Part shown: positions 1 through 12,978 of the stretch, in pieces
Position numbering within the stretch: the first letter of the stretch is position 1
Layout of the letters: every line of letters begins with the position of its first letter
Origin: Promethearchaeota archaeon Loki_b32
Lineage (GTDB): Archaea > Asgardarchaeota > Lokiarchaeia > Sigyniarchaeales > SOKP01
DNA: 55,678 nt
NCBI GenBank assembly: GCA_005223125.1
Contig: NJBH01000025.1
Location: forward strand, 1 to 55,678
Reading direction: 5' to 3'
The notes under the pieces: model-generated
Database searches by the model: none
Told to the model about the DNA's origin: nothing
The model's input: only the letters and a program-made list of their open reading frames with translations
Position numbers and translations under genes: made by a program

Positions 1-15
1 ACTCAATGTGGATTA

Positions 16-923
16 GTGTTAGATACTAGTTTCAAAGAATCGGTATTTATTCATAACAATGAAAACGATAAAAATAATTTAAGCAAACAATTTGTAGCTC
101 TTGGGAAATGTCAGGATTTTGTAGGTGGCTTAGGTTCTTTTATGGATTATGAAAAATCCAAATATTTGAGAGACAGAAAGGGTAGACTTCTATCACCAAA
201 TGGACAAAAATTATATAGACGGTTAAAGAAAAATTATAACCAATTTTCACGGATTAAAAATCAAGAAACCGAAGATCGAATTTTTAATATCTTAGATAAA
301 ATTGCTGGTTATCTGAATCTTAACAAAAATATACGGAATAATGCTGCGTATTATTATAGAAAAATTTTAAAAAATGAAAAGAAGATTCTCAATAATATAT
401 CTTTAATAGGTTTTTGTATTTTCTTTGCTGTAAGGGAGGAATATCACAATGCCCCAATAACTATTAATGAAATCTCTAACGCATTCCAAAATTTCGGTCA
501 TCGCATTACTCCTCTTTTAATTCTGAGGGATGGAGTAAGATATAAGCATTATCTTAATAATAATTCTATTCCACATAAAAGTGAAGATTATCTCACCAGA
601 TTAGTAGACCAACTCATCAAGCATAAAGCTTTAAATGAACGATTACAGTATAAAGGTGTGTCTTGGTCATTAACGGAATACCAAAATAATATTATTCTGA
701 AATACTGTAAAATATTAAAAAAATTATCTTCGGAGCAAAGAGGGGGAGAAATCCCTTTTTCTTAACAGGAGCTGTTATATATCTTGCTGATTGGCTCTTG
801 GCAAAAGAATTTTTTCAAAAAGCAATACTAACTCAGAAAATTATATCTAAAGCTACAGAGATTGTGGAATACTCAATTAGAGACCATTATGTGAATTTAT
901 TAAAACCTATATTTATAAAATAA
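16..923 (+). CDS. Transcription initiation factor IIB (TFB)-like cyclin-repeat protein, frameshifted at a G5 run (742-746); the 5' end may lie outside the window
   Basis: ORF 16..765 contains the first cyclin repeat (LDKIAGYLNLNKNIRNNAAYYYRK...APITINEIS). Adding one G at 742-746 continues it as GGRNPFFLTGAVIYLAD...LTQKIISKATEIVEYSIRDHY, the TFB second-repeat motif, to TAA at 921-923. Confidence 0.7.
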
Positions 924-1172
924 TATTTTTTTAAAAAATTGAGTTTTTCTAATATTACTGACAATGACATTTAAAATTATTGATAATATAATATTTTTTT
1001 CAATATTATTGACAATGGTGGTGAGTGAACTCTAATTAATAGATGGAACTTTTTTATGTGACTCTTCTTATTACATTAGTATTTTATAATTTAATGAGAA
1101 AATCATTCTACTCTTTATTGAATAATCAATACTTTTAAATATTTTATTTACATTATTTATTATGAGAAGATA

Positions 1173-1215: not shown

Positions 1216-1977
1216 TTATTCCTCAATACTTATATTGGGGAATATCTTCAAACCTTTACCTATAAAAGATGGATGTCCTGAAAATTTTTTAGAAACATAT
1301 TCATTAAATATTTCTATTGTATTTAATTCTTCACCGTGTTCATTATATATCTTCTTCTCCAAGTATCTTTTCACATTATATGCTGTAAAATCAGATAATT
1401 GAACACCTTCACTTAATCTTGAATCAATAAAATAGATTGCTGGAAGAACTCTTTTAAATTTTATTTTTGTACTTTGCAAGATGATATCTTTGACTAATTC
1501 TTTTATTCTCATGTCCTTTTTTAAGTCTTCTGTATCTCTTATAATAATACCCATTGTTTGGTATTCATCCCGTAAAGTCATTTCAATCCTTTCAAGTAGC
1601 ATTGTATAATTCCAATATTTAATATTGTCCTGTTGAGTGACTTTATCTTTTAAAATGGCAACAGAGATGACTTTAAATTGAGTATTAGAATATACATTTA
1701 TCATTATTGAACGATATAATTCTATTGCATAATTAAAATCTAACTTCTTTCCTAAACTAGTCATACCTTTCTCTTGGCTAAATAAATTTGATGCGTGAAG
1801 TTCAAAATTCGAGCTTTTTAAATTATACTTGCTAGCAATTCTTTCTTTCTCTTTGAAGATATTTAGATAAAAATTCAAAAAGTCTTCTTCTTTAAGTAAA
1901 ATGGCATTAAGAAGGTAAATATTAGTCCCATCAGTATAATCTATACTTCCTGATTCATCAATAAAAATTAAGACCAT
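1216..1977 (-). CDS. DUF3800 family protein (RNase H-like fold)
   Basis: N-terminal LIFIDESG, ELHAS, and C-terminal FIDSRLSEGVQLSDFTAY motifs. Confidence 0.85.
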   Translation of the reverse strand: MVLIFIDESGSIDYTDGTNIYLLNAILLKEEDFLNFYLNIFKEKERIASKYNLKSSNFELHASNLFSQEKGMTSLGKKLDFNYAIELYRSIMINVYSNTQFKVISVAILKDKVTQQDNIKYWNYTMLLERIEMTLRDEYQTMGIIIRDTEDLKKDMRIKELVKDIILQSTKIKFKRVLPAIYFIDSRLSEGVQLSDFTAYNVKRYLEKKIYNEHGEELNTIEIFNEYVSKKFSGHPSFIGKGLKIFPNISIEE

Positions 1978-2280: not shown

Positions 2281-3627
2281 TTATTTAGAATTTTCAATAC
2301 ATTTGTCTTTTTGAAATTCTTTAAGCTTTTCTATTTTGATATTTTTTTCTTCAATCTTTTTATATAAATCCTTATTTTCTTTTAATAACTCGTCAACAAT
2401 TTTCTGCTGTAATATATATTCTTGTGTCTTTTTTATATCAATTTGATTATTATCATCAAATTCTATTCTTAAACTATTTAAAAAATTTTTTAGATACTGA
2501 GGAAGACTTGAGTATCGATTCCAAGCTCTTTGAACAATTTCACTATATGAGAAATGTGTAGATGGAGTACCTTCAATACTAATAATTGGAGTTCCAGAAA
2601 CTTGAAGTACATTAATGGAATAATTTCCTCTTTTAAAAGAGATTTCTTTTATTTTTTTATTCTCTCCCTGTGCAGGTGCATGTATTAGAATAGAATGTTT
2701 TCCTGTTGATAAAAGCCATCTTTCTATTAATTCCTTTATGAATGTTTTAGTTGAGATAAATCTTGAGGCAACATATTCTACTATGGTTTGCTTCAAATTT
2801 GGATCTTTAAAAATAAAATCGCCAACATGTAAAATTCTATCTGTTTCATAACCTTTTTCAATTTTTTTTATAATTTCATGAGGATCTTTATCTGGATTCT
2901 GAGATATTCGCTCAATTGCTTTCAGAGCATCTCTACTATTCATTCCCAATACATCAACAGCTATCTCACAAATCGTATCGTGAGGAAATCCTTTAAGTTT
3001 CAATGCCATCGAATGTGTTATTTTAATTCCTAATTTTTTATGTCTTAATTTTATCATATTATCATATTTTTGCAATTTTTTCATTTCCTTTTCGCAAATA
3101 TTTCTCTCTTCTTTCATTAATGATAATACTGGTGAAGGAAGATCAAAAATATTTAAATATCGTAAAAGAACTTTCTCGTTAATAGGATTATCTTTTATAG
3201 TTCGCTTAATTGCTTCATGATGTGTCATACCAGATTCTATACAAGTATCATAAAAATTTTTATAATGTGTATAATTTTGAAAGTCAGTCCAAGGATTTAC
3301 TATACTTGCTTGTTTTGCCGCTTTTAACGCTTTAATATGATCTTTATAAACACGACAAGGAAATTTAGTTAAACCCGCTTGAAAACCTGCTTGGTATCTC
3401 TCCCAGCCATCAGATATCCAATACTTACCGTTATCATACCAAGTAATTAAAGACTTATCATGATCATATTTTTCCTTTATAGAATCAACTAATTCATCAC
3501 TAGGAATTTCTTGACGAGGATTCATTGGATCTAATTCTAAATCATTAATAGAAACATCTTTTATGATATAATCTGATGCTTCATGTTTCTTTACCATCCT
3601 TCTTTTTTTGCCTCTTTTTCTAACCAT
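2281..3627 (-). CDS. ParB/Srx N-terminal domain protein (degenerate GxRR motif)
   Basis: VSINDLELDPMNPRQ...ELVDSIKE...YWISDGWERYQA; likely start is MVKKHE, near 3597. Confidence 0.7.
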   Translation of the reverse strand: MVRKRGKKRRMVKKHEASDYIIKDVSINDLELDPMNPRQEIPSDELVDSIKEKYDHDKSLITWYDNGKYWISDGWERYQAGFQAGLTKFPCRVYKDHIKALKAAKQASIVNPWTDFQNYTHYKNFYDTCIESGMTHHEAIKRTIKDNPINEKVLLRYLNIFDLPSPVLSLMKEERNICEKEMKKLQKYDNMIKLRHKKLGIKITHSMALKLKGFPHDTICEIAVDVLGMNSRDALKAIERISQNPDKDPHEIIKKIEKGYETDRILHVGDFIFKDPNLKQTIVEYVASRFISTKTFIKELIERWLLSTGKHSILIHAPAQGENKKIKEISFKRGNYSINVLQVSGTPIISIEGTPSTHFSYSEIVQRAWNRYSSLPQYLKNFLNSLRIEFDDNNQIDIKKTQEYILQQKIVDELLKENKDLYKKIEEKNIKIEKLKEFQKDKCIENSK

Positions 3628-4604
3628 TGTATATATACTTGTCGAACTAATTGGGCGGTTTTCATATGTGCTCGACTTAAAGCGGTTCTATGCCAATAAT
3701 TATATTCAGAAGGAATTTTAAATGCAACAGAAGGAATATCACTCATTGTAGGAGTCTGAATATTATGTTCCTCTTTGACTTCTTTCATTACTATTTCAAA
3801 AGTTTTTTCTTTATCTTTAAGTTTATCTCGAATATCTCGTAAAATGATTTCCTGTTCTTTCCATGGTTTTTCTTTATCGAGAGAAAAATCTTGAATCATT
3901 TCAAAAATCTTATCAACTTTTTCTGATGGTGGGATTTCTCCAAGATGATCTGTTATTTTTTTTATAATTGAAAGTGTTTGAAAATTCATTTTAAAATCTG
4001 GTTTAATATCATATTGCTCAAGGATTAATCTTTCTGCATCAGTTCTTTCTTCTGGTTTTTTGATTAAAATTTGAAGCTCTTTTGGAAGTTTTTCTACCGT
4101 TAATATCTTATTTATATATGTAGTATTTCCTTTATAACATTTATCAGCTATCTCTTTTTTTGCATTTTTTTTTCTTTCTTCTTCTGTTCCTTCTGTATAT
4201 TTTTCATTTATTAATATCTCAAGCCAATTAAGAACTGAAATCATTTTTTGAGATTCAGTAAGATCTTTTCTTCCTATATTCTCACTAAAAGACATTGCTA
4301 TTGCATCAGGATCAGAAAGTTCTAATATCTTACATGGAACTTCACTATATCCTGCTCGAATTAAAGCATTGAATCTCCGCCATCCCGCTACAATAGCATA
4401 AGGTTTATCAGTATTTCCACCATATTTTTCACTATTTGTTGATCTGACGATTATATTATAAATTAATCCAATTCCTTTGATTGAATTTATCAATTCCTCA
4501 TCTTTTTCATCCTCTATCCATTCACCGCCTCTCGCTTGAGTAGTATCTATAGCAATATCATCAATGGAAATCATTTTTATTACATTTTTCTTTATTTCAT
4601 TCAT
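3591..4604 (-). CDS. ParB/RepB/Spo0J family protein with a C-terminal RHH-like segment
   Basis: ELINSIKGIGLIYNIIVR, AGWRRFNA and SENIGRKDL motifs; C-terminal VAFKIPSEY...TAQLVRQVYIQWL. Confidence 0.85.
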   Translation of the reverse strand: MNEIKKNVIKMISIDDIAIDTTQARGGEWIEDEKDEELINSIKGIGLIYNIIVRSTNSEKYGGNTDKPYAIVAGWRRFNALIRAGYSEVPCKILELSDPDAIAMSFSENIGRKDLTESQKMISVLNWLEILINEKYTEGTEEERKKNAKKEIADKCYKGNTTYINKILTVEKLPKELQILIKKPEERTDAERLILEQYDIKPDFKMNFQTLSIIKKITDHLGEIPPSEKVDKIFEMIQDFSLDKEKPWKEQEIILRDIRDKLKDKEKTFEIVMKEVKEEHNIQTPTMSDIPSVAFKIPSEYNYWHRTALSRAHMKTAQLVRQVYIQWLEKEAKKEGW

Positions 4605-4710
4605 TTTAAATCATTTTATATATTTAATATATTTAATATATTTTTAAATAAAAAAAAAGAGCGCTCCTAATAAAAAAGCTCTTATTAAAAGTAATTGTAT
4701 TCATAGATAT

Positions 4711-4995
4711 TTATTTATCGTTGGGTAACCAACCCATTGCAATATCTTTCCAGCTTACACCTTCAACATCAAAACTTCCTTTTCCACTTATGTCAGAATA
4801 AACGATCTCAGCAATAGTAGCATCTCCATTTTCAGGTAATCTCTCTCTAAGTCCCTTAATAGCCTCTGTTTTATCGGCATATAGATATAACTGTTCTATA
4901 TCTATTAATACCCAAAATTTTCTTACTTTTTTTGTTATTACTTTTCCTTTTTCTTCAACTTCAATTTCAGTTTCATTTACTTCCAAATAACTCAT
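4711..4995 (-). CDS. Hypothetical protein
   Basis: 94-aa ORF tightly coupled to the upstream gene, with a GGAGG SD-like motif. Confidence 0.65.
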   Translation of the reverse strand: MSYLEVNETEIEVEEKGKVITKKVRKFWVLIDIEQLYLYADKTEAIKGLRERLPENGDATIAEIVYSDISGKGSFDVEGVSWKDIAMGWLPNDK

Positions 4996-4996
4996 T

Positions 4997-5914
4997 TTAA
5001 CGACCTCCTATATTAAAGCCATCTAATTCCAATATATTTTCTTTTGTAATAAAGTATGTTTTTATGCAATCATATTTAGTAGGTAAATAATTCAGATAGA
5101 TATATTGAGCTACTTCTCTAGGTGCTTTTGGTGTTAAATCTTGCTTTGTATAACCTTTCCAATACATCGTACTCACTCGTCTTTCCATTCTTTTAGGTTC
5201 TTCTTTCTTTGTTCTCTCTATTAATTGGTGTAAATTAAGATTTCTTATTCCCCATTTACGGTAATAAACACCTAAATCTTTATTGAGTTCATGTATCCTA
5301 CTTCTAATATCTTTATTTTCTGCTTTTTCTGATATAAATGTCACTTCAAAAAGATTTGTCTTTGTTCCAGCTATTTTTTGAAGTTCATCATCTTCTATTG
5401 TAACTACTAAGAAATCAACAGGAATATCTGCATCGTACTCTATGTCTTTCTTTGTTGGATGTGGCTTCTTTGGCAATTTTTCATCTAAATAATCAATTAT
5501 TTCACCAATTTTACTGTTATCTAATGGATTTAAAACTGTTCCATCAATATCATGAACTCGTTTATAATTGATCTCTATTTCAGTACTACTTCCTGTATGA
5601 AAAGTAATGCCGTAATGTTTATCAACATCTAATTTCTCATCGGATTTTAGTCCACCTTTTCCTTTTAATATATAAATAGATTCCCTATAAAAATTTAGAA
5701 TCATTCTTAGACTTTGTGTTAAAATTGAAGGAATGAAAGCGACTATTTTTTCTTTTGTTATACTTGATTTTTTTGAATCGGTTTTTTCTTGTTCTGAATT
5801 TATTTCTCCATTTATAGTATTTTTTGCGATTTCCATTTTGTTCTTTTCTAATTCATGAATTTTTTGATCTAATTCTATTGCTTCTTTGTTTAATTTTTCT
5901 TGATTTTTACTCAT
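4997..5914 (-). CDS. Hypothetical protein (N-terminal coiled coil)
   Basis: Long ORF; ATG at 5914 (MSKNQEK) overlaps the end of the upstream RHH gene (ATGAGTAA). Confidence 0.7.
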   Translation of the reverse strand: MSKNQEKLNKEAIELDQKIHELEKNKMEIAKNTINGEINSEQEKTDSKKSSITKEKIVAFIPSILTQSLRMILNFYRESIYILKGKGGLKSDEKLDVDKHYGITFHTGSSTEIEINYKRVHDIDGTVLNPLDNSKIGEIIDYLDEKLPKKPHPTKKDIEYDADIPVDFLVVTIEDDELQKIAGTKTNLFEVTFISEKAENKDIRSRIHELNKDLGVYYRKWGIRNLNLHQLIERTKKEEPKRMERRVSTMYWKGYTKQDLTPKAPREVAQYIYLNYLPTKYDCIKTYFITKENILELDGFNIGGR

Positions 5915-6065
5915 CTTTTTTTTCACCACCTTGATTTATCCAATTTCTTATTGCTTCTTGAATTGCTTTATTTATATTGCCCCTTCTCAAACCAAAACGC
6001 TTAAAGATCTCTGTTCGGAAGCTCTCCTCTAAATCATCAGGTAAAGCAACACTTATTCTTCCCAT
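5907..6065 (-). CDS. Ribbon-helix-helix (CopG/MetJ-like) regulator, not in the ORF track
   Basis: Manual translation MGRISVALPDDLEESFRTEIFKRFGLRRGNINKAIQEAIRNWINQGGEKKDE*; first gene of the minus-strand operon. Confidence 0.8.
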   Translation of the reverse strand: MGRISVALPDDLEESFRTEIFKRFGLRRGNINKAIQEAIRNWINQGGEKKDE

Positions 6066-6147
6066 ATTCATTTCCATTTTTCAATCATTTTTTTTTTATT
6101 TTTCAATGATAATAAACACATAAACATTTAAAAAGTTTTGTGCCTAA

Positions 6148-6759
6148 ATGTTTATGCAACATATTATGAATTTTGAAAGAAATTTTAAAATTGAAATGGT
6201 TAAACCATTAGTCTTTAAAATTTATTCTAAATTGTCAAAAGAAACATTTGAAGTCATAAATTATATTACCGATTGGCATTGTAAATGTCCAGAGCACATT
6301 GAAACAAGTAGTGAATGTAAGCATATTAAGCTTATAAAATCATGGTTGGGTTTTAAAAAGAATAGTAGAATAGCACAAGAGAGTAAGTTTAAGTGTGATA
6401 AATTTGAATATAATTTGGATAATAATAATTTGATTAAACCACTTCCAACTCATCCCCCTCCTGATCCAAATGAAAGTTTAGGGAAATGGATTGAAAAGAT
6501 TGGCAATACCAATCTAATTGAATTTAACATTATAATGGATTATATTATGAATTATATTGATAAAATTGGATTTGAAAAAACACTTCATCTTTTAACCAGA
6601 TGTCCAATTGACAAAATAATTGATTTAGAAAATGAATTTAAAGATGGATTCTGGAAAAATCGTAAAGAATGTCCAATTAAAGGTTGCAAGTATATTAGTC
6701 ATAATAAAACTAATATTATTTATCATTTAGCAACTCGCCATCATTTAGAAGGAAAATAA
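6148..6759 (+). CDS. SWIM zinc finger + TniQ-like module + single C2H2 finger
   Basis: WHCKCPEH...ECKHI (SWIM); PLPTHPPPDPNESLGKWIEKIGNTN (TniQ N-terminal-like); CPIKGC-x12-HLATRH. Confidence 0.7.
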   Translation: MFMQHIMNFERNFKIEMVKPLVFKIYSKLSKETFEVINYITDWHCKCPEHIETSSECKHIKLIKSWLGFKKNSRIAQESKFKCDKFEYNLDNNNLIKPLPTHPPPDPNESLGKWIEKIGNTNLIEFNIIMDYIMNYIDKIGFEKTLHLLTRCPIDKIIDLENEFKDGFWKNRKECPIKGCKYISHNKTNIIYHLATRHHLEGK

Positions 6760-6761
6760 TT

Positions 6762-7967
6762 TTAAAGTTTATATTCTTCAAATAATATTTTATGTTTATT
6801 TATTATATGTCGCTTTAAATCCGATTTTTGCTTTGACTTATAATCACATAAGGAACATTTATACCAGATTACACCAATATCATGTTTATTTGCCAAATGT
6901 CTATTAAGATTTGATTTTAATTTAGACTTATAATCACATTTGGAACATTTATACCATTTAACACCAATATTATGCTTATTGGCTAAATGTTTGGTTAAAT
7001 TACTACTTATTTTTACCTTATATTCACAATGAGGACATTGATACCACTTAACATTTATATTATGTTTATTAGCTAAATGCTTATTTAAATCGCCTTTAAT
7101 TTTAGATTTATATTCACAATTGGGACAATGATACCATTTAACGCCAATGTCGTGCTTATTGGCTAAATGTTCTGTTAATACTTTCTTATATTTGGTTTTG
7201 AAGTCACAGTAATTACATTTATACATCTTTACATTAGGATTATGAAGATAATTAATATGTTCCTTTAATTTATGCTTTTGTTTTGCCTTATATTCACAAT
7301 GTGGACATTGAAACCATTTAACATTTATATTATGTTTTAATGCTAAATGTCTTTTTAAAGAAGTAGAATGTTTTGATTTATAATCACATTTGGAACATTT
7401 ATACCATTTAACACCAATATCATGAGTAAAAGCTAAATGTTGAGTTAGATTTGTAGATAATTTTGTTTTGTAATCACAGTGAGGACATTTATACCATTTT
7501 GAGTTAATATCATGAATATTTGCTAAATGAATTGCTAACGCTTGTTTCTCTTTTGCTTTATAAACACAATGAGGACATTTTTGCCATTCTATTCCAAGAT
7601 TATGAATTAAAGAAATATGACGAAACATTCCTGAATCGGATTTACTTTCATATTTACAACTTTCAATAGGACAAAGCTTTTTGTTTTTCCAAAAGTCTTT
7701 CTTAAATTTATTTTTTATTTTTGCATTAATCTCAATAGGAGATCTTGTTAAATAGCTTAAGCATTCTAAAAATCCTGCCTTTTCAGTATAATCAATTATA
7801 TGCTTTAACATGATTCCAAAACTGATTTTATTTTCTTTAGCTAACTTTTCAATCCATTTACCAATACTTTCATTTTGTATCGGTGGTGTTAAATTATACC
7901 CTAAATATAATATAACAATGAATCCATAAGGTAATTTAATTGTCATATTTTCAAAAAAATTACTCAA
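6762..7967 (-). CDS. TniQ-like module fused to ten tandem C2H2 zinc fingers
   Basis: PPIQNESIGKWIEKLAKEN, then ten fingers at 30-aa period: nine C-x2-C-x12-H-x4-H, and a first one with C-x4-C. The start codon is uncertain. Confidence 0.85.
   Translation of the reverse strand: MSNFFENMTIKLPYGFIVILYLGYNLTPPIQNESIGKWIEKLAKENKISFGIMLKHIIDYTEKAGFLECLSYLTRSPIEINAKIKNKFKKDFWKNKKLCPIESCKYESKSDSGMFRHISLIHNLGIEWQKCPHCVYKAKEKQALAIHLANIHDINSKWYKCPHCDYKTKLSTNLTQHLAFTHDIGVKWYKCSKCDYKSKHSTSLKRHLALKHNINVKWFQCPHCEYKAKQKHKLKEHINYLHNPNVKMYKCNYCDFKTKYKKVLTEHLANKHDIGVKWYHCPNCEYKSKIKGDLNKHLANKHNINVKWYQCPHCEYKVKISSNLTKHLANKHNIGVKWYKCSKCDYKSKLKSNLNRHLANKHDIGVIWYKCSLCDYKSKQKSDLKRHIINKHKILFEEYKL
6792..7673 (-). repeat. 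90-bp coding tandem repeat (zinc-finger minisatellite, about 10 units)
   Basis: Recurring blocks such as taatcacattggaacatttataccatttaacaccaatat and gctaaatg at 90-nt period. Confidence 0.9.
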
Positions 7968-10867
7968 AAATCGATCTTACACCAGACTCAGAAACGAAAG
8001 TACAGTTAAGAAGACCTCAGATAGGTGCGATACATTCCATAGCATCATATTTCACGAGAAGTTTAGAAAGAAATGATTTGGATCCTGCAATTATCGTTTT
8101 ACCAACAGGTAGTGGAAAAACTGCAGTTTTAGTATTATCACCTTTTTTATTGAAAGTAAAAAGAGTATTGATAATCACTCAAAGCCAAATTGTCAGAAGA
8201 CAGATTTTTAGAGAATTTAGTGAATTACTATTATTAAAAAAGTTGAAAATTTTACCAGAGAACATGCCATCTCCAAGAGTATATGAATTAGATAAAATGC
8301 TTAAATCTGAGAAACAATGGCAAGAATTAATGAAGAATGACGTTATAATATCTACACCTGCTTGTATTAGTCCGCAGTATAAAAAAATTTACCAGGCACC
8401 CAAAGAAGCATTTGATTTGATTTTATACGATGAAGGTCATCATTTACCAGCTATAACTTGGTTTGGTATTTCCAATTATTTCGATAGTATGGAAATATTA
8501 TTTACTGCAACTCCATTTAGGAATGACAAAAAAAGTATTTACGGAAAAATTATATATGAATTTACTATAAGTGAAGCCTACAAAGACGAGATTTTTGGAA
8601 ACATCAATTTTATTCCTGTAGAAGTATCATCAATAGAACCCAACGATATCGATGTTGCAATTGCGAAAAAAACAGAAGAAATTTTTAAACAAGATAGGGA
8701 TGACGGATATGAACACCTAGTCCTAGTTAGGTCTTCTAAGATTGAAAAATCAAAAGAATTACTTGAAATATATAACAATAATACTGATTTATCTCTAAAA
8801 TTGATAAATAGTCAGCATTCACAAAAAACTGTCCAATCAATATTAAAAGAACTTCAAGAAGGAAAAATAGATGGTGTAATTGCTGTTGATATTATGAACG
8901 AGGGGGTTGATATCCCCAATCTCAAAATTGCTGCAATTCATTCTACATATAAATCCTTGAGCATCTTGCTGCAATTTATAGGAAGATTTGCAAGAACTGG
9001 TCATGAGAAAATTGGTGATGCGAAATTTATCGCAACTCCACAGAATGTGACTATAAATGCAATCGACTTATACCGAGAAGACAAGAAGTGGCAAGAAATA
9101 ATTCCTAAACTGTATGATAGCAAGATTCAAGGAGAGGTGAAGTTACGTGATGATATTTATTCATTTAATGCAATTGAAATTGAAGGGGTCACTCTTGATG
9201 AAACAATTACAAGACTTTCATTATTTGAGTTTAAACCGAAAAAACATGTGAAAGTTTACCAAATTGAAAATACGGTAGATTTACAGGCTAATTTAGAGCT
9301 AAAGGGATGGTCAATCGTTAAAAAGGATTTTAGCTCCGAATTGTCTTGCGTAGTATTTCTTATTAAAAGGATAGAAAAACCAAAATGGGCAACAACAAAT
9401 ATTCTTAGTAATATTGAATATCAATTAATTGTAATTGTTTATTTTGAGGCAACAAAACTTCTTTTCATTAATTCTTCCATTAAATCAGATTTCATCTATG
9501 ATTATATTGTTGAACAAATATCAATTGGAGGATATTACACATTATCTACGAACGAAATAAATAGAGCTCTAACATATCTAGAATCTCCAGAATTCTATAA
9601 TATAGGAATGAAAAGAAGAACTTTTGGAACTAGTTCAGAATCTTATCGGATGATAACTGGACCAAGAGTTGAAAATGCTATAAAGAGTAACGATGGCTAT
9701 GCGTTTGAGAGGGGTCATGTTGTTGGCAAAAGTCGTTCTATAGGAGAGAATAATACACTAGGTGTTAGTAGTTCATCTAAAATTTGGACTAGTGGTCGTG
9801 GTTTAATCCCTGAATTTGTTGATTGGTGTCATATATTTAATGATATCTTGTCAGATAATACCATTGATATTGATACAGGTACAAATTTAGATAAAATAAA
9901 AACCGGAAGTAGATTATTAGAGATACCTAATAATGTAGTTGCTGTAAATTGGAATGATGAGATCTACAAACATACTGCATTAGGAAAATATGAGATTTCT
10001 GGAGAATTAAAGGAAATCAACTTACTAGATTTCTCACTTGAAGTAATTGATCAAGATGATGATGATGACAGTATTCAATTTGAAATCAATAATAACGAAA
10101 TAGAATGGAAATGCTATTTTCGTTTACAATCGCCATTATTTATTCAAGATAATTCAAACCCAAGAATTTTAATTGAATTCAATGAACAAGAATGTGAATT
10201 GTTAGAGTTTATTAAATCTTATCCAGTACAGTTCTATACTAGAGATTTATCAATTATAACTGGAAATAATATTAGTAAAATGCCCTCAATTAATGAGAGT
10301 TATGACACTAGAAATATTGATACAATGGATTGGGATAATAATAATGTCGATATTACTTCAGAAGAGATTGGATCTTCAGAAGATGGATTATCTATCCAAG
10401 AATTTTTACTTAACTATTATCATGGATCCTCAGAAATTGTATTCTTTGATCATCGTAAAGGAGAAATTGCTGATATACTCCTTTTTAATATGAATCAAAG
10501 AAATGAACTTTTAATTGACTTCATTCATATCAAAAGTTCTTCTCAATCTAATCCTGGTCAAAGAATGAAGGATGTTGATGAATTAATCGGTCAAATATTA
10601 AGATCAATTAAATGGACACAAATTGAAGACCTAATTTCAAGAATTGAATACAGAATGGAGGGTAGTAGTTATTTTTATCACGGAACTTTTGATGAATTAA
10701 AAGAATTAAAAGAAAATTATGATAGCGTTACATTTCGAATTATAGGAGTACAACCAGGTCTTTCAAAAAATAGATTGAACGATCGCGTTTTAATTCCATT
10801 TCAAGCTTTATCAGTTTTTGTATCTTCATTTAATATCGAATCAGTTAAATTACTTATTTCTGAATGA
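7940..10867 (+). CDS. SF2 DEAD/DEAH (restriction-subunit-like) helicase fused to a C-terminal PD-(D/E)xK-like nuclease; putative defence protein
   Basis: LPTGSGKT, DEGHH, TATPFR, EGVDIP and QFIGRFAR; C-terminal DHRKGEIADI...FIHIKSS. Confidence 0.8.
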   Translation: MSYFQKNYSKIDLTPDSETKVQLRRPQIGAIHSIASYFTRSLERNDLDPAIIVLPTGSGKTAVLVLSPFLLKVKRVLIITQSQIVRRQIFREFSELLLLKKLKILPENMPSPRVYELDKMLKSEKQWQELMKNDVIISTPACISPQYKKIYQAPKEAFDLILYDEGHHLPAITWFGISNYFDSMEILFTATPFRNDKKSIYGKIIYEFTISEAYKDEIFGNINFIPVEVSSIEPNDIDVAIAKKTEEIFKQDRDDGYEHLVLVRSSKIEKSKELLEIYNNNTDLSLKLINSQHSQKTVQSILKELQEGKIDGVIAVDIMNEGVDIPNLKIAAIHSTYKSLSILLQFIGRFARTGHEKIGDAKFIATPQNVTINAIDLYREDKKWQEIIPKLYDSKIQGEVKLRDDIYSFNAIEIEGVTLDETITRLSLFEFKPKKHVKVYQIENTVDLQANLELKGWSIVKKDFSSELSCVVFLIKRIEKPKWATTNILSNIEYQLIVIVYFEATKLLFINSSIKSDFIYDYIVEQISIGGYYTLSTNEINRALTYLESPEFYNIGMKRRTFGTSSESYRMITGPRVENAIKSNDGYAFERGHVVGKSRSIGENNTLGVSSSSKIWTSGRGLIPEFVDWCHIFNDILSDNTIDIDTGTNLDKIKTGSRLLEIPNNVVAVNWNDEIYKHTALGKYEISGELKEINLLDFSLEVIDQDDDDDSIQFEINNNEIEWKCYFRLQSPLFIQDNSNPRILIEFNEQECELLEFIKSYPVQFYTRDLSIITGNNISKMPSINESYDTRNIDTMDWDNNNVDITSEEIGSSEDGLSIQEFLLNYYHGSSEIVFFDHRKGEIADILLFNMNQRNELLIDFIHIKSSSQSNPGQRMKDVDELIGQILRSIKWTQIEDLISRIEYRMEGSSYFYHGTFDELKELKENYDSVTFRIIGVQPGLSKNRLNDRVLIPFQALSVFVSSFNIESVKLLISE

Positions 10868-11074: not shown

Positions 11075-11386
11075 CTATTCTTTTGTTGCTTTATTTATGA
11101 TGTGTTCGATTTCCACTTCAAATCCTACCACCTTGTAGGGGTTATGTCCCTTTTTAAACGTGCCTTCTTTCCAATTCCACCAATTCTTTTCAAGCCTATG
11201 AGAGCCTAAATTCCAAACTTCAAGGTCTTCAATACCTTCTAATATCTGAAATACCCGATACCCTCTCGCGCCTTGCTGCAAAATAGCCAAGAACTTTTTA
11301 AGAATTTTTACGCCTTCTGAATATTCCTCCACGCTCATAAGGTTATTCGATGCTTCCGTTGATTTAAGATTTATCGTTACAACCAC
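11075..11386 (-). CDS. Hypothetical protein
   Basis: 103-aa ORF in a block that is more GC-rich than its surroundings. Confidence 0.45.
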   Translation of the reverse strand: MVVTINLKSTEASNNLMSVEEYSEGVKILKKFLAILQQGARGYRVFQILEGIEDLEVWNLGSHRLEKNWWNWKEGTFKKGHNPYKVVGFEVEIEHIINKATKE

Positions 11387-11700
11387 GAGTCTAAGATCTG
11401 GTTCTTTACAGGGTGCTTCATTCTTCGCTTTGGTTTTCTGGGGAAATATCGCTTTTGAGTGGTTTCGGGAAGGAACGGGTGTTGAACCAGAGAATACAAC
11501 ACATAACGCTCTAAGGTTTCAATAGATGCCAATACGTGTCCGAAATGAGAGAGAATCTTTCCGCTCGTAGGTCTAAACTCCGAATTTGGGTGCATCGGCG
11601 CAGATATTAATATCAAGGGAATTTGTTGCTTCAAGCACTCCTTTAGTCCGCTAATGGCGTGCAGAAGCACCCTAAACGTTTTTTGCTCGTAATTGGGAGT
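11377..11700 (-). pseudogene. C-terminal fragment resembling an inactivated RadA/RecA-like protein
   Basis: RPTSGKILSHFGHVL...YSLVQHPFLP resembles the RecA-fold C-terminus (GG-x2-L-x-H...L-x2-HP); an in-frame stop lies at 11701 and there is no Walker A. Confidence 0.35.
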
Positions 11701-11754
11701 TTATATGTTTTCGTCGATGAAGGTAGATTAAAAATTATCTATCAGGAGGGACGA

Positions 11755-12978
11755 AAAAAGATTGCGAAATTTATGGAACCCTTTGATTTCAAGGAAGATG
11801 AGAACAAATTCCGAATAAATGGTTTATTAGGGCATCCTCAAATCGCTAAAAAAAACAGAACTTATTCAAGTCTATTTATTAATCAACGCTATATTATTAG
11901 TGATGTCTTATTTAGAGCTATAAGTGAAGCTTATGAAGGAACTTTAATGGTGAGTAAATACCCTTTCTTTATTATATTTCTTGAGCTTGATCCCTCTGTT
12001 ATTGATTTCAACGTTCATCCAAAGAAACTTCATGTTAGATTCGAAAAAGTGGATTCAATTTATAATAAAGTTTATAATGTTATCAAAGGTTTTGTGGAAG
12101 ATAAATTTATTATAAAAGAGGCAAAATATATATCCGCTGAATTACATGATTTTATACCTAAAGAAGAGAAAAAATTTGCCGAAATTACAGAAACTATAAC
12201 AGAAATTCGAGAAAAAGAAGTTAAAGATATCAACTCAACGCAAGAACTGCCAATATTACCTGAAGAAAGTGTACAATTAAACTTAGATGATCAAGTAATT
12301 AGAGATAAATCAAATAAAAAATTACCTCCTGAGGCATTTTTACGGGGTAAGTATATTATTTCAGAAAATTTTCCAAAGCTCCGTTTAATCTCTCATACAG
12401 GTCAATTAAATAATAAAATTTATGTAGTTTTAGAGGGTATTAACGAAAATAATGAAGAGGGCTTATTTATTTTAGATCAACATGCAGCATCAGAACGGAT
12501 AAGTAAAGAAAAATTCTTGGATGCGTTTGAAACATCAAAAATGAGTAAGCAAAAATTAATATCTGCCTTAAAAATTGAAGTATCTCCAAGTGAAAGGATA
12601 TTTTTAGATTCTAACTTACGTGAAATCCAAAAGTTGGGATTTAGTTTTGAATACTTTGGAGGAAATACATTTATTTTGAGAGAAATTCCTACAATCATGG
12701 GAAAACTTCCAAATATAAATATCATAAAAGAAATAATTAGTGATATTTCTAAAATTGGCAAGGATAAAAGTTTTTCAGATATGAAGGAAGAAATTATTAA
12801 CTATTTATCATGTCATAAAAGTATTAGAGGAGGGGATGATCTCTCCTTAAAAGATATTAGAGGATTATTGACTGAATTAGCGGAATGTAAAGATTCATAC
12901 CATTGCGCTCATGGAAGACCTACTTTAAGATTTTTCTCTTATAGAGAATTAGATAAACTATTTAAAAGAATAGTATAA
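11755..12978 (+). pseudogene. mutL: mutL, 5'-truncated (GHKL ATPase domain missing)
   Basis: Transducer motif IDFNVHPKK; endonuclease motifs DQHAASERISKE, SCHKSIR and CAHGRP. Homology begins only at KKIAKFM (about 11755). Confidence 0.85.

Follow-up and report, generated by a model that had tools for sequence, protein, structure and literature searches.

The locus and its island

The two genes considered here, A and B, lie near the start of a 55.7-kb contig, the whole of which (55,678 nt) is referred to below as the window, in a genome bin of 4.13 Mb that is 95.5% complete with 4.6% contamination. The start of the contig falls within an island. Reading inwards from that edge, the relevant features are:

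1..922, + strand: second copy of a TFIIB-like gene, its start lost at the contig edge and with a frameshift near 760
864..887, + strand: predicted binding site for fingers 10 to 3 of B, within the TFIIB-like gene, at its 3' end and in codon register (codons V/A-E-Y-S-I-R-D-H)
940..1020, + strand: candidate transposon end, with a TGA (940) followed by three imperfect repeats of 22 bp (948, 970 and 999)
1216..1977, − strand: DUF3800 gene, cargo
2281..6077, − strand: cargo operon divergent from gene A, comprising an RHH-like gene (5907-6077), unknowns of 310 and 94 aa, and two ParB_N genes
6148..6759, + strand: gene A, with a SWIM-like N-terminus, an intact minimal TniQ module and one C2H2 finger
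6762..7967, − strand: gene B, with an N-terminally clipped TniQ module and ten C2H2 fingers
7940..10867, + strand: SF2 (ResIII/DEAD-like) helicase gene, in the place of tnsC/tnsAB of intact relatives
11753..12978, + strand: 3' part of the native mutL gene, the cut at 11752/11753 being the right edge of the larger island

A and B stand tail to tail with their stop codons 2 bp apart, and share a module, as a first-pass annotation of the bare sequence had described; the module shows about 49–50% identity over 74–77 aa (tblastn E 4e-21) and occurs nowhere else in the genome. The contrast drawn there between one finger in A and ten in B is also borne out (for B, Pfam zf-C2H2 E 6e-23 and zf-H2C2_5 E 2e-49).

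Two genes at the margins of the island, TFIIB-like and mutL, are each present twice in the bin, at 75% identity (in the case of the TFIIB-like gene, 75% DNA identity between the window copy and the native copy on contig C61). The TFIIB-like copy in the window is probably the attachment gene of the element to which A and B belong. The repeat pattern of the candidate end at 940–1020 was derived post hoc, and a search for a second end matching it found no partner. At the other side, alignment with relatives from the genus begins exactly at the mutL cut, and EF-1beta comes next; the rest of the contig carries EF-1beta as a single copy in its genus-wide position. On contig C6 (77100-78950), the 5' part of the native mutL reads in frame into a 3' part that is more distantly related and would seem to restore the gene. 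We considered mutL as a Tn7 target and rejected it, there being no transposon end between the two parts of this in-frame hybrid, a structure that fits a recombinase island instead; neither flank yielded an integrase gene. We infer that a larger, recombinase-type island, which cuts mutL, carries the remnant of the element along with part of the former target gene.

Some minor features of this region may be recorded. About 10 bp from the mutL break, 45 bp (11700-11743) match the end of a multi-copy IS-like element, which is present at contig ends in two further species of the genus and as a single occurrence on contig C58. Two short minus-strand frames occupy 11075-11670. The one at 11377-11670 shows 53% identity to the C-terminus encoded by a 266-aa gene on contig C24, RecA/RadA-like in appearance. 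The last c. 500 bp of contig C6 (G000:C6) differ from the rest of that contig, show recurrent AAGGTCAAGGTCA words, and are possibly a foreign or chimeric tail.

The shared module is a minimal TniQ

The first-pass annotation had likened the shared module to the N-terminal part of TniQ/TnsD, the target selectors of Tn7-like transposons. The module is indeed a minimal TniQ of about 75 aa, and the family is that of target selectors of Tn7-like elements in which a C2H2 array is the predicted DNA-binding part. The strongest evidence for this comes from the genomic context of homologues. Among 1.8 billion representative sequences, the module was found in 52 clusters (at 50% identity), nearly all of which consist of an N-terminal module followed by C2H2 fingers; within the class, it was matched in six of 161 genomes, one of the matches being a fragment in the same genus, and it was not found in viral contigs. 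In loci chosen from the best and longest matches rather than as a random sample, the expected association with transposition genes was found: the module gene lies behind tnsC in 11 independent loci (L009, L011, L053, L054, L055=L062-64, L065, L066, L067, L072, L073 and L076), mostly with a fused tnsAB. Pfam detects the TnsA-like N domain fused to the transposase in L009, L011, L055, L066 and L072, and the TnsA–TnsB fusion is present where the contig extends that far. In L053 and L054, tnsC overlaps the start of the TniQ gene. Five loci have two module genes, tail to tail in L055 as in the window. Another eight loci, including the window, show no tnsC in the DNA examined; four of these are near ParB genes and several are fragments.

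Comparison with profiles gives a fainter picture. Pfam TniQ (PF06527) is matched by 19 of 45 homologues (best E 9e-7), A and B themselves being unscored, and eight homologues that were scanned again fell under the 27-bit Pfam cut-off and covered at most positions 1–68 of the 142 in the profile, the second half of which is unmatched by the module. A search of the genome with Pfam TniQ gave nothing above cut-off, a word-based protein search with the B module gave no match, and a PDB sequence search with the family alignment retrieved C2H2 fingers only. The signature that had been read in both genes (L-P-x-x-P-x-P-x-x-E-S...W) is present in A and nearly all homologues, but B has lost its first half, the near-invariant L-P-x-H-P that precedes the P-x-P-x-ES box. 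The zinc finger and Hel2 that follow Hel1 in TniQ are missing, and the module passes straight into a C2H2 finger.

Fold searches lean the same way, though weakly. An AF2 model of the module (pLDDT 94) retrieved TniQ/TnsD-containing entries as four of the top five hits of VIA-align (best 8fcu_P, Z 4.9, rmsd 2.7, 64 residues aligned) and as ranks 1, 2 and 4 of Foldseek (all non-significant, best E 0.8), scores that lie under the tool's own reliability level. When the A module was modelled on two L053 TnsC chains with ATP, it scored 0.61 (best control 0.00), with 90% of contacts agreeing between runs and a partner pLDDT of 86; the mark set for such scores was reached by 58 of 80 solved pairs and two of 110 mismatched ones. 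TniQ–TnsC complexes have already been solved, so that this modelled pair shows likeness only, and may reflect memorisation by the model. The modelled interface would involve residues 1–9 and 24–40 of the module, and residues 1–9 are missing in B.

Several of the loci have further features of interest. L062 (18878-21041; also L055, L063 and L064) has an Argonaute (Piwi) gene about 3 kb upstream of tnsAB, possibly as cargo. In L009, the element follows a DNA methylase gene that is truncated, and includes another with 66% identity to it (317-883 and 7954-8784); the element has a TGT start at about 850 and three repeats. In L072, a host helicase gene is separated from tnsAB by some 450 bp (3210-3670) of short tandem repeats, the core of which is TGTCAGCT. 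Finally, P0029 (from L073), P0018, P0055, P0032 and P0046 are module homologues with an extra N-terminal domain or with C-termini other than a C2H2 array, and represent more domain swapping in the TniQ family.

Gene B and its zinc fingers

The 401-aa product of B contains ten C-x2-4-C-x12-H-x3-5-H repeats of the kind found in Krüppel-type arrays: one finger that is shared with A, and nine more at a 30-aa period, all ending in HxxxxH. None of the nine linkers is TGEKP; seven are of a DIGVxW type, 8 residues long. A six-frame search of the genome turned up no other multi-finger C2H2 array. The TniQ module of B is without its first c. 8 conserved residues. The first c. 28 codons of B, which overlap the start of the helicase gene and its upstream region, match no homologue, the helicase upstream region standing in for the 5' end of B.

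The nearest relatives of B are the first TniQs behind tnsC in L053 and L054, to which it is 62–63% identical. The identity is 67–68% in fingers 3–10 and 46–51% in the module, while L053 and L054 are 79–81% identical to each other throughout. At the recognition positions of fingers 3–10, 24–25 of 32 residues (75–78%) are the same in B as in L053/L054, compared with 59–61% at other non-structural positions; non-orthologous fingers share 0.5 of 4 recognition positions, and other elements differ from B. Relaxed selection on the B module was sought but not shown.

A predicted target site

Two elements, that in the window and that in L054, adjoin a TFIIB-like gene at its 3' end; they have the same orientation, with the long TniQ pointing towards that gene, which normally adjoins a tRNA gene with nothing between. 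In L054, 11 bp at one edge of the insert match those at the other in inverted form (found in six of 300 random pairs), and T5 lies on either side; taking the insert out brings the spacing back to the native one (184 vs 189 bp). Its termini start with TA, not TG.

The textbook zinc-finger recognition code was used to score possible sites for fingers 3–10, a 3-bp register being assumed in view of the non-canonical 8-residue linkers. Of the pairings in this code, Arg-G and Asn-A are borne out by PMC3668361. In every one of the ten TFIIB-like gene ends tested, the code selects the same eight codons, on the strand that puts the TniQ module towards the insertion, so that the N-terminal fingers of B would sit nearest the element. 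Permutation of the finger order equalled this in none of 3000 trials over the ten homologous (and thus non-independent) gene ends, and in seven of 3000 for the native copy alone, for a match that had been spotted by eye ahead of scoring. The native site ranks 334th among 8.3 million positions genome-wide, and 43 of 2489 gene ends in the genome (1.7%) score as high; the site in the window copy scores 8.9, against 13.1 for the native one. The distance from the predicted site to the edge of the element is 52 bp in the window and 49 bp in L054, which are independent insertions. On this sequence evidence, we would put the chances that the 24-bp run is the site of the B lineage at roughly even, or slightly better. 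The same code, applied to the other elements scanned, gave no convincing site. With a matched array and a predicted 24-bp site at two independent insertions, the aiming rule is directly testable.

Copies of the TFIIB-like gene away from the tRNA locus, with the predicted finger site kept, are present in several species (L077, L078, L081, L082 and L085), and some of them adjoin another TFIIB-related gene. A tRNA-Glu-like gene at G000:C61:107625-107737 and at L054 6105-6208 has an apparent non-canonical intron, and ARAGORN made no call in L054.

Gene A

The 203-aa product of A comprises a SWIM-like zinc-binding part (about aa 9–70), the TniQ module (aa 96–173) and a single C2H2 finger. The SWIM finger that had been read at its N-terminus is only SWIM-like: the CxC-x10-CxH motif is present, but Pfam SWIM does not score A itself, and matches only one of five A homologues (E 0.025); the motif, as CxC-xn-CxH, is invariant in five homologues of the A N-terminus. 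The Atlas neighbours of this domain are the N-termini of SWIM-bearing IS6 transposases (TM <0.4), and a fold search with the domain (model pLDDT 70) gave no clear match. It is common to proteins with other C-termini, one of them IS-like; in P0005, it is joined to a region that appears integrase-like by eye. A link through P0005 to TnsF/Tsy was considered and dropped, searches of Pfam, PHROG and PDB with it having given nothing. Most likely, A acts as a second selector in need of a partner, like other short TniQs; it could possibly have a role in the absence of a transposase.

A probable remnant of a Tn7-like element, and the alternatives

The preferred explanation, to which we assign a probability of about 0.8, is that A and B are the two selectors of an Asgard Tn7-like element whose remnant in the window has a probable site in the final part of the TFIIB-like gene, has undergone a replacement by the helicase gene, and is carried in a larger island. 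In full, such an element would consist of a fused TnsAB, TnsC, and one or two TniQs. In intact relatives, the C2H2 array would read conserved sequence where a host gene ends, while the N-terminal c. 75-aa TniQ module would recruit the AAA+ ATPase TnsC, which would bring TnsAB, with insertion some 50 bp further on. For the B lineage, the site would most likely be the TFIIB-like 3' end, read at about one finger per codon. In this genome, a helicase cassette would have replaced tnsAB and tnsC, at the same time clipping the putative TnsC-binding tip of B, and the remnant, along with part of the former target gene, would travel within the island that cuts mutL; this is the course of events that we find most plausible.

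The element in the window is most likely broken and not a working system. Wherever tnsC and a B-type gene are both visible in relatives, tnsC closely precedes the latter, and in the window the helicase gene is there. The first-pass annotation saw no TnsA, TnsB or TnsC in the window, and this extends to the 95.5%-complete genome, in which clade-specific tblastn and HMM searches of all six frames gave no match to TnsC or TnsAB under E 0.1. The single above-cut-off match to Pfam TniB was a gene of 401 aa whose chromosomal position is conserved, and which would seem to read like Cdc6. The proposal of a selector that takes its specificity from a zinc-finger array stands for the family, but not for the window copy, which has no detected TnsAB or TnsC and in which B is clipped at its predicted TnsC-contacting end.

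As the contig starts inside the island, and the assembly is 95.5% complete, the tnsABC genes could lie in the gap to its left, and the element might then be complete and active; alternatively, with the TFIIB-like and mutL genes each present twice and 4.6% contamination, the neighbourhood might be a chimera of assembly. We regard either as improbable. The place that tnsC should have before a B-type gene is taken, and B is clipped; moreover, the tail-to-tail join of A and B recurs, at 74% DNA identity, in an independent assembly (L014), and the rest of the contig is tied to the genus by EF-1beta. Slightly more improbable still is the notion that B is now a free-standing poly-C2H2 regulator, in the manner of eukaryotic transcription factors, that binds the TFIIB-like gene. 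The frame of B has stayed open for 401 codons, and its fingers are closer to those of relatives than is its module, but this contrast is partly one of saturation, since any two fingers of the TniQ-array family share about half of their residues. An otherwise intact module fits with a recent clip, the start of B overlaps a helicase gene on the opposite strand, and none of 53 further species in the genus has B.

A more serious competitor, though on balance an unlikely one, is that the A lineage has been kept without a transposase of its own, as a TnsC-binding decoy, as an adaptor acting in trans, or as a regulator of the RHH–ParB operon in an island that is not of the Tn7 type. A forms a supported clade (98/92) with its homologues in L014 and L018, all three of which adjoin ParB genes and have no tnsC in the DNA examined; its rough dN/dS is 0.17 in the SWIM-like part and 0.24–0.26 in the module; the module is intact and, in the model, would fit onto TnsC; and downstream of A in L018 there is a start in the same direction instead of B. 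Yet the selection on A may predate the loss of tnsABC, and L014 is itself decaying, with the SWIM-like part gone and B reduced to a four-finger stump. ParB is cargo in the intact element L053 too, and the L018 contig stops 34 bp after A, where tnsC could follow. The partition or transcriptional role that had been held equally possible is not needed for the family as a whole, but may apply to the A lineage.

Relation to known systems

In E. coli, the TnsD protein of Tn7 reads the last codons of a conserved gene, glmS, and insertion takes place just past that gene at a fixed distance and orientation. TnsD does so by means of helix-turn-helix domains. The B lineage would resemble TnsD–glmS in reading the end of a gene, whereas TnsD does not have a repeat array with a readable code.

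The fusion of TniQ to C2H2 fingers in Asgard Tn7 elements is, in kind, already published. According to the accessible text of Thesier et al. 2025 (bioRxiv 10.1101/2025.07.27.667033), C2H2 arrays are present in five archaeal TniQs, mostly from Asgard; Tn7-like clades VII–X, from Asgard and Hydrothermarchaeota, carry C2H2-ZnF TniQs; and a clade VIII element from Heimdallarchaeota was reconstituted and transposed in E. coli, site-specifically and with a 5-bp duplication. These clades are like the family described here in having TniQ with tandem C2H2 fingers, fused TnsAB and TnsC (in relatives of A and B), an Asgard distribution and, probably, a fixed-gene site, and our L009, with its truncated DNA methylase gene and homologue of it, resembles clade VIII, so that the two datasets may overlap. 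The survey in that text was by Pfam TniQ, with some orphans set aside, and its five C2H2 TniQs compare with 52 clusters here, the eight scored members of which were all under the Pfam cut-off. By all appearances, the family is several times the size that a Pfam search would suggest. Two-TniQ layouts, the SWIM-like fusion, a TFIIB-like target and a finger-by-finger reading of the site are found here and are not reported in the accessible text, which leaves the choice of site by the fingers unexplained. What is new here is a larger, Pfam-faint family with a half-size TniQ, its frequent pairs, and a testable reading from finger to site.

Dual TniQ–TnsD loci are known among Tn7-like elements (Faure et al. 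2023; PMC10293859), and resemble A and B in having duplicated selectors, one long with a DNA-binding part of its own and one short that may need a partner. The bacterial TniQ core, of about 300 aa, has Hel1, a zinc finger, a linker and Hel2, or in V-K Hel1 and the zinc finger (PMC10293859); the module here is unlike it, having only the first half of Pfam TniQ before the C2H2 fingers. Aloposons (PMC8813620) were also considered and rejected, as the paper makes no mention of Tn7, TniB or C2H2.

Tentatively, and with odds a little short of even, we suggest that the arrays obey the textbook code at about one finger per codon, and that the clade retargets Tn7 through changes in helix residues or the shuffling of fingers. 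It would then be a natural protein-programmed integrase built on a c. 75-aa TniQ, with a type of finger that is shared with giant-virus-like proteins and is not that of animal TGEKP arrays. If the code holds true, fusing designed fingers to a very small TniQ could direct a Tn7 transposase to its site with no need of CRISPR components.

Origin of the fingers

The type of finger bears on the source of poly-C2H2 arrays in Asgard archaea. The closest relatives of the arrays are given as metazoan proteins in the accessible part of Thesier et al. 2025; in our word-based search, in which likeness means similarity of the repeats, the closest arrays outside the TniQ family include two (P0058 in L087 and P0060 in L088) on contigs that we read as giant-virus-like from their gene content. 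These two contigs, the only ones that were read, are gene-dense, with genes for D5 helicase, capping enzyme, TBP and ribonucleotide reductase. A search of viral contigs with the B array gave one weak GVMAG match. P0058 and P0060 differ from B in having no TniQ module, and their C-terminal domain resembles a PD-(D/E)xK nuclease by eye, with no Pfam match. Their fingers are like those of B in the 30-aa period, the HxxxxH ending and DIGVxW-type 8-residue linkers, with TGEKP absent from all, and finger units of P0058 and P0060 are 45–49% identical to those of B, compared with 36–38% for three insect proteins.
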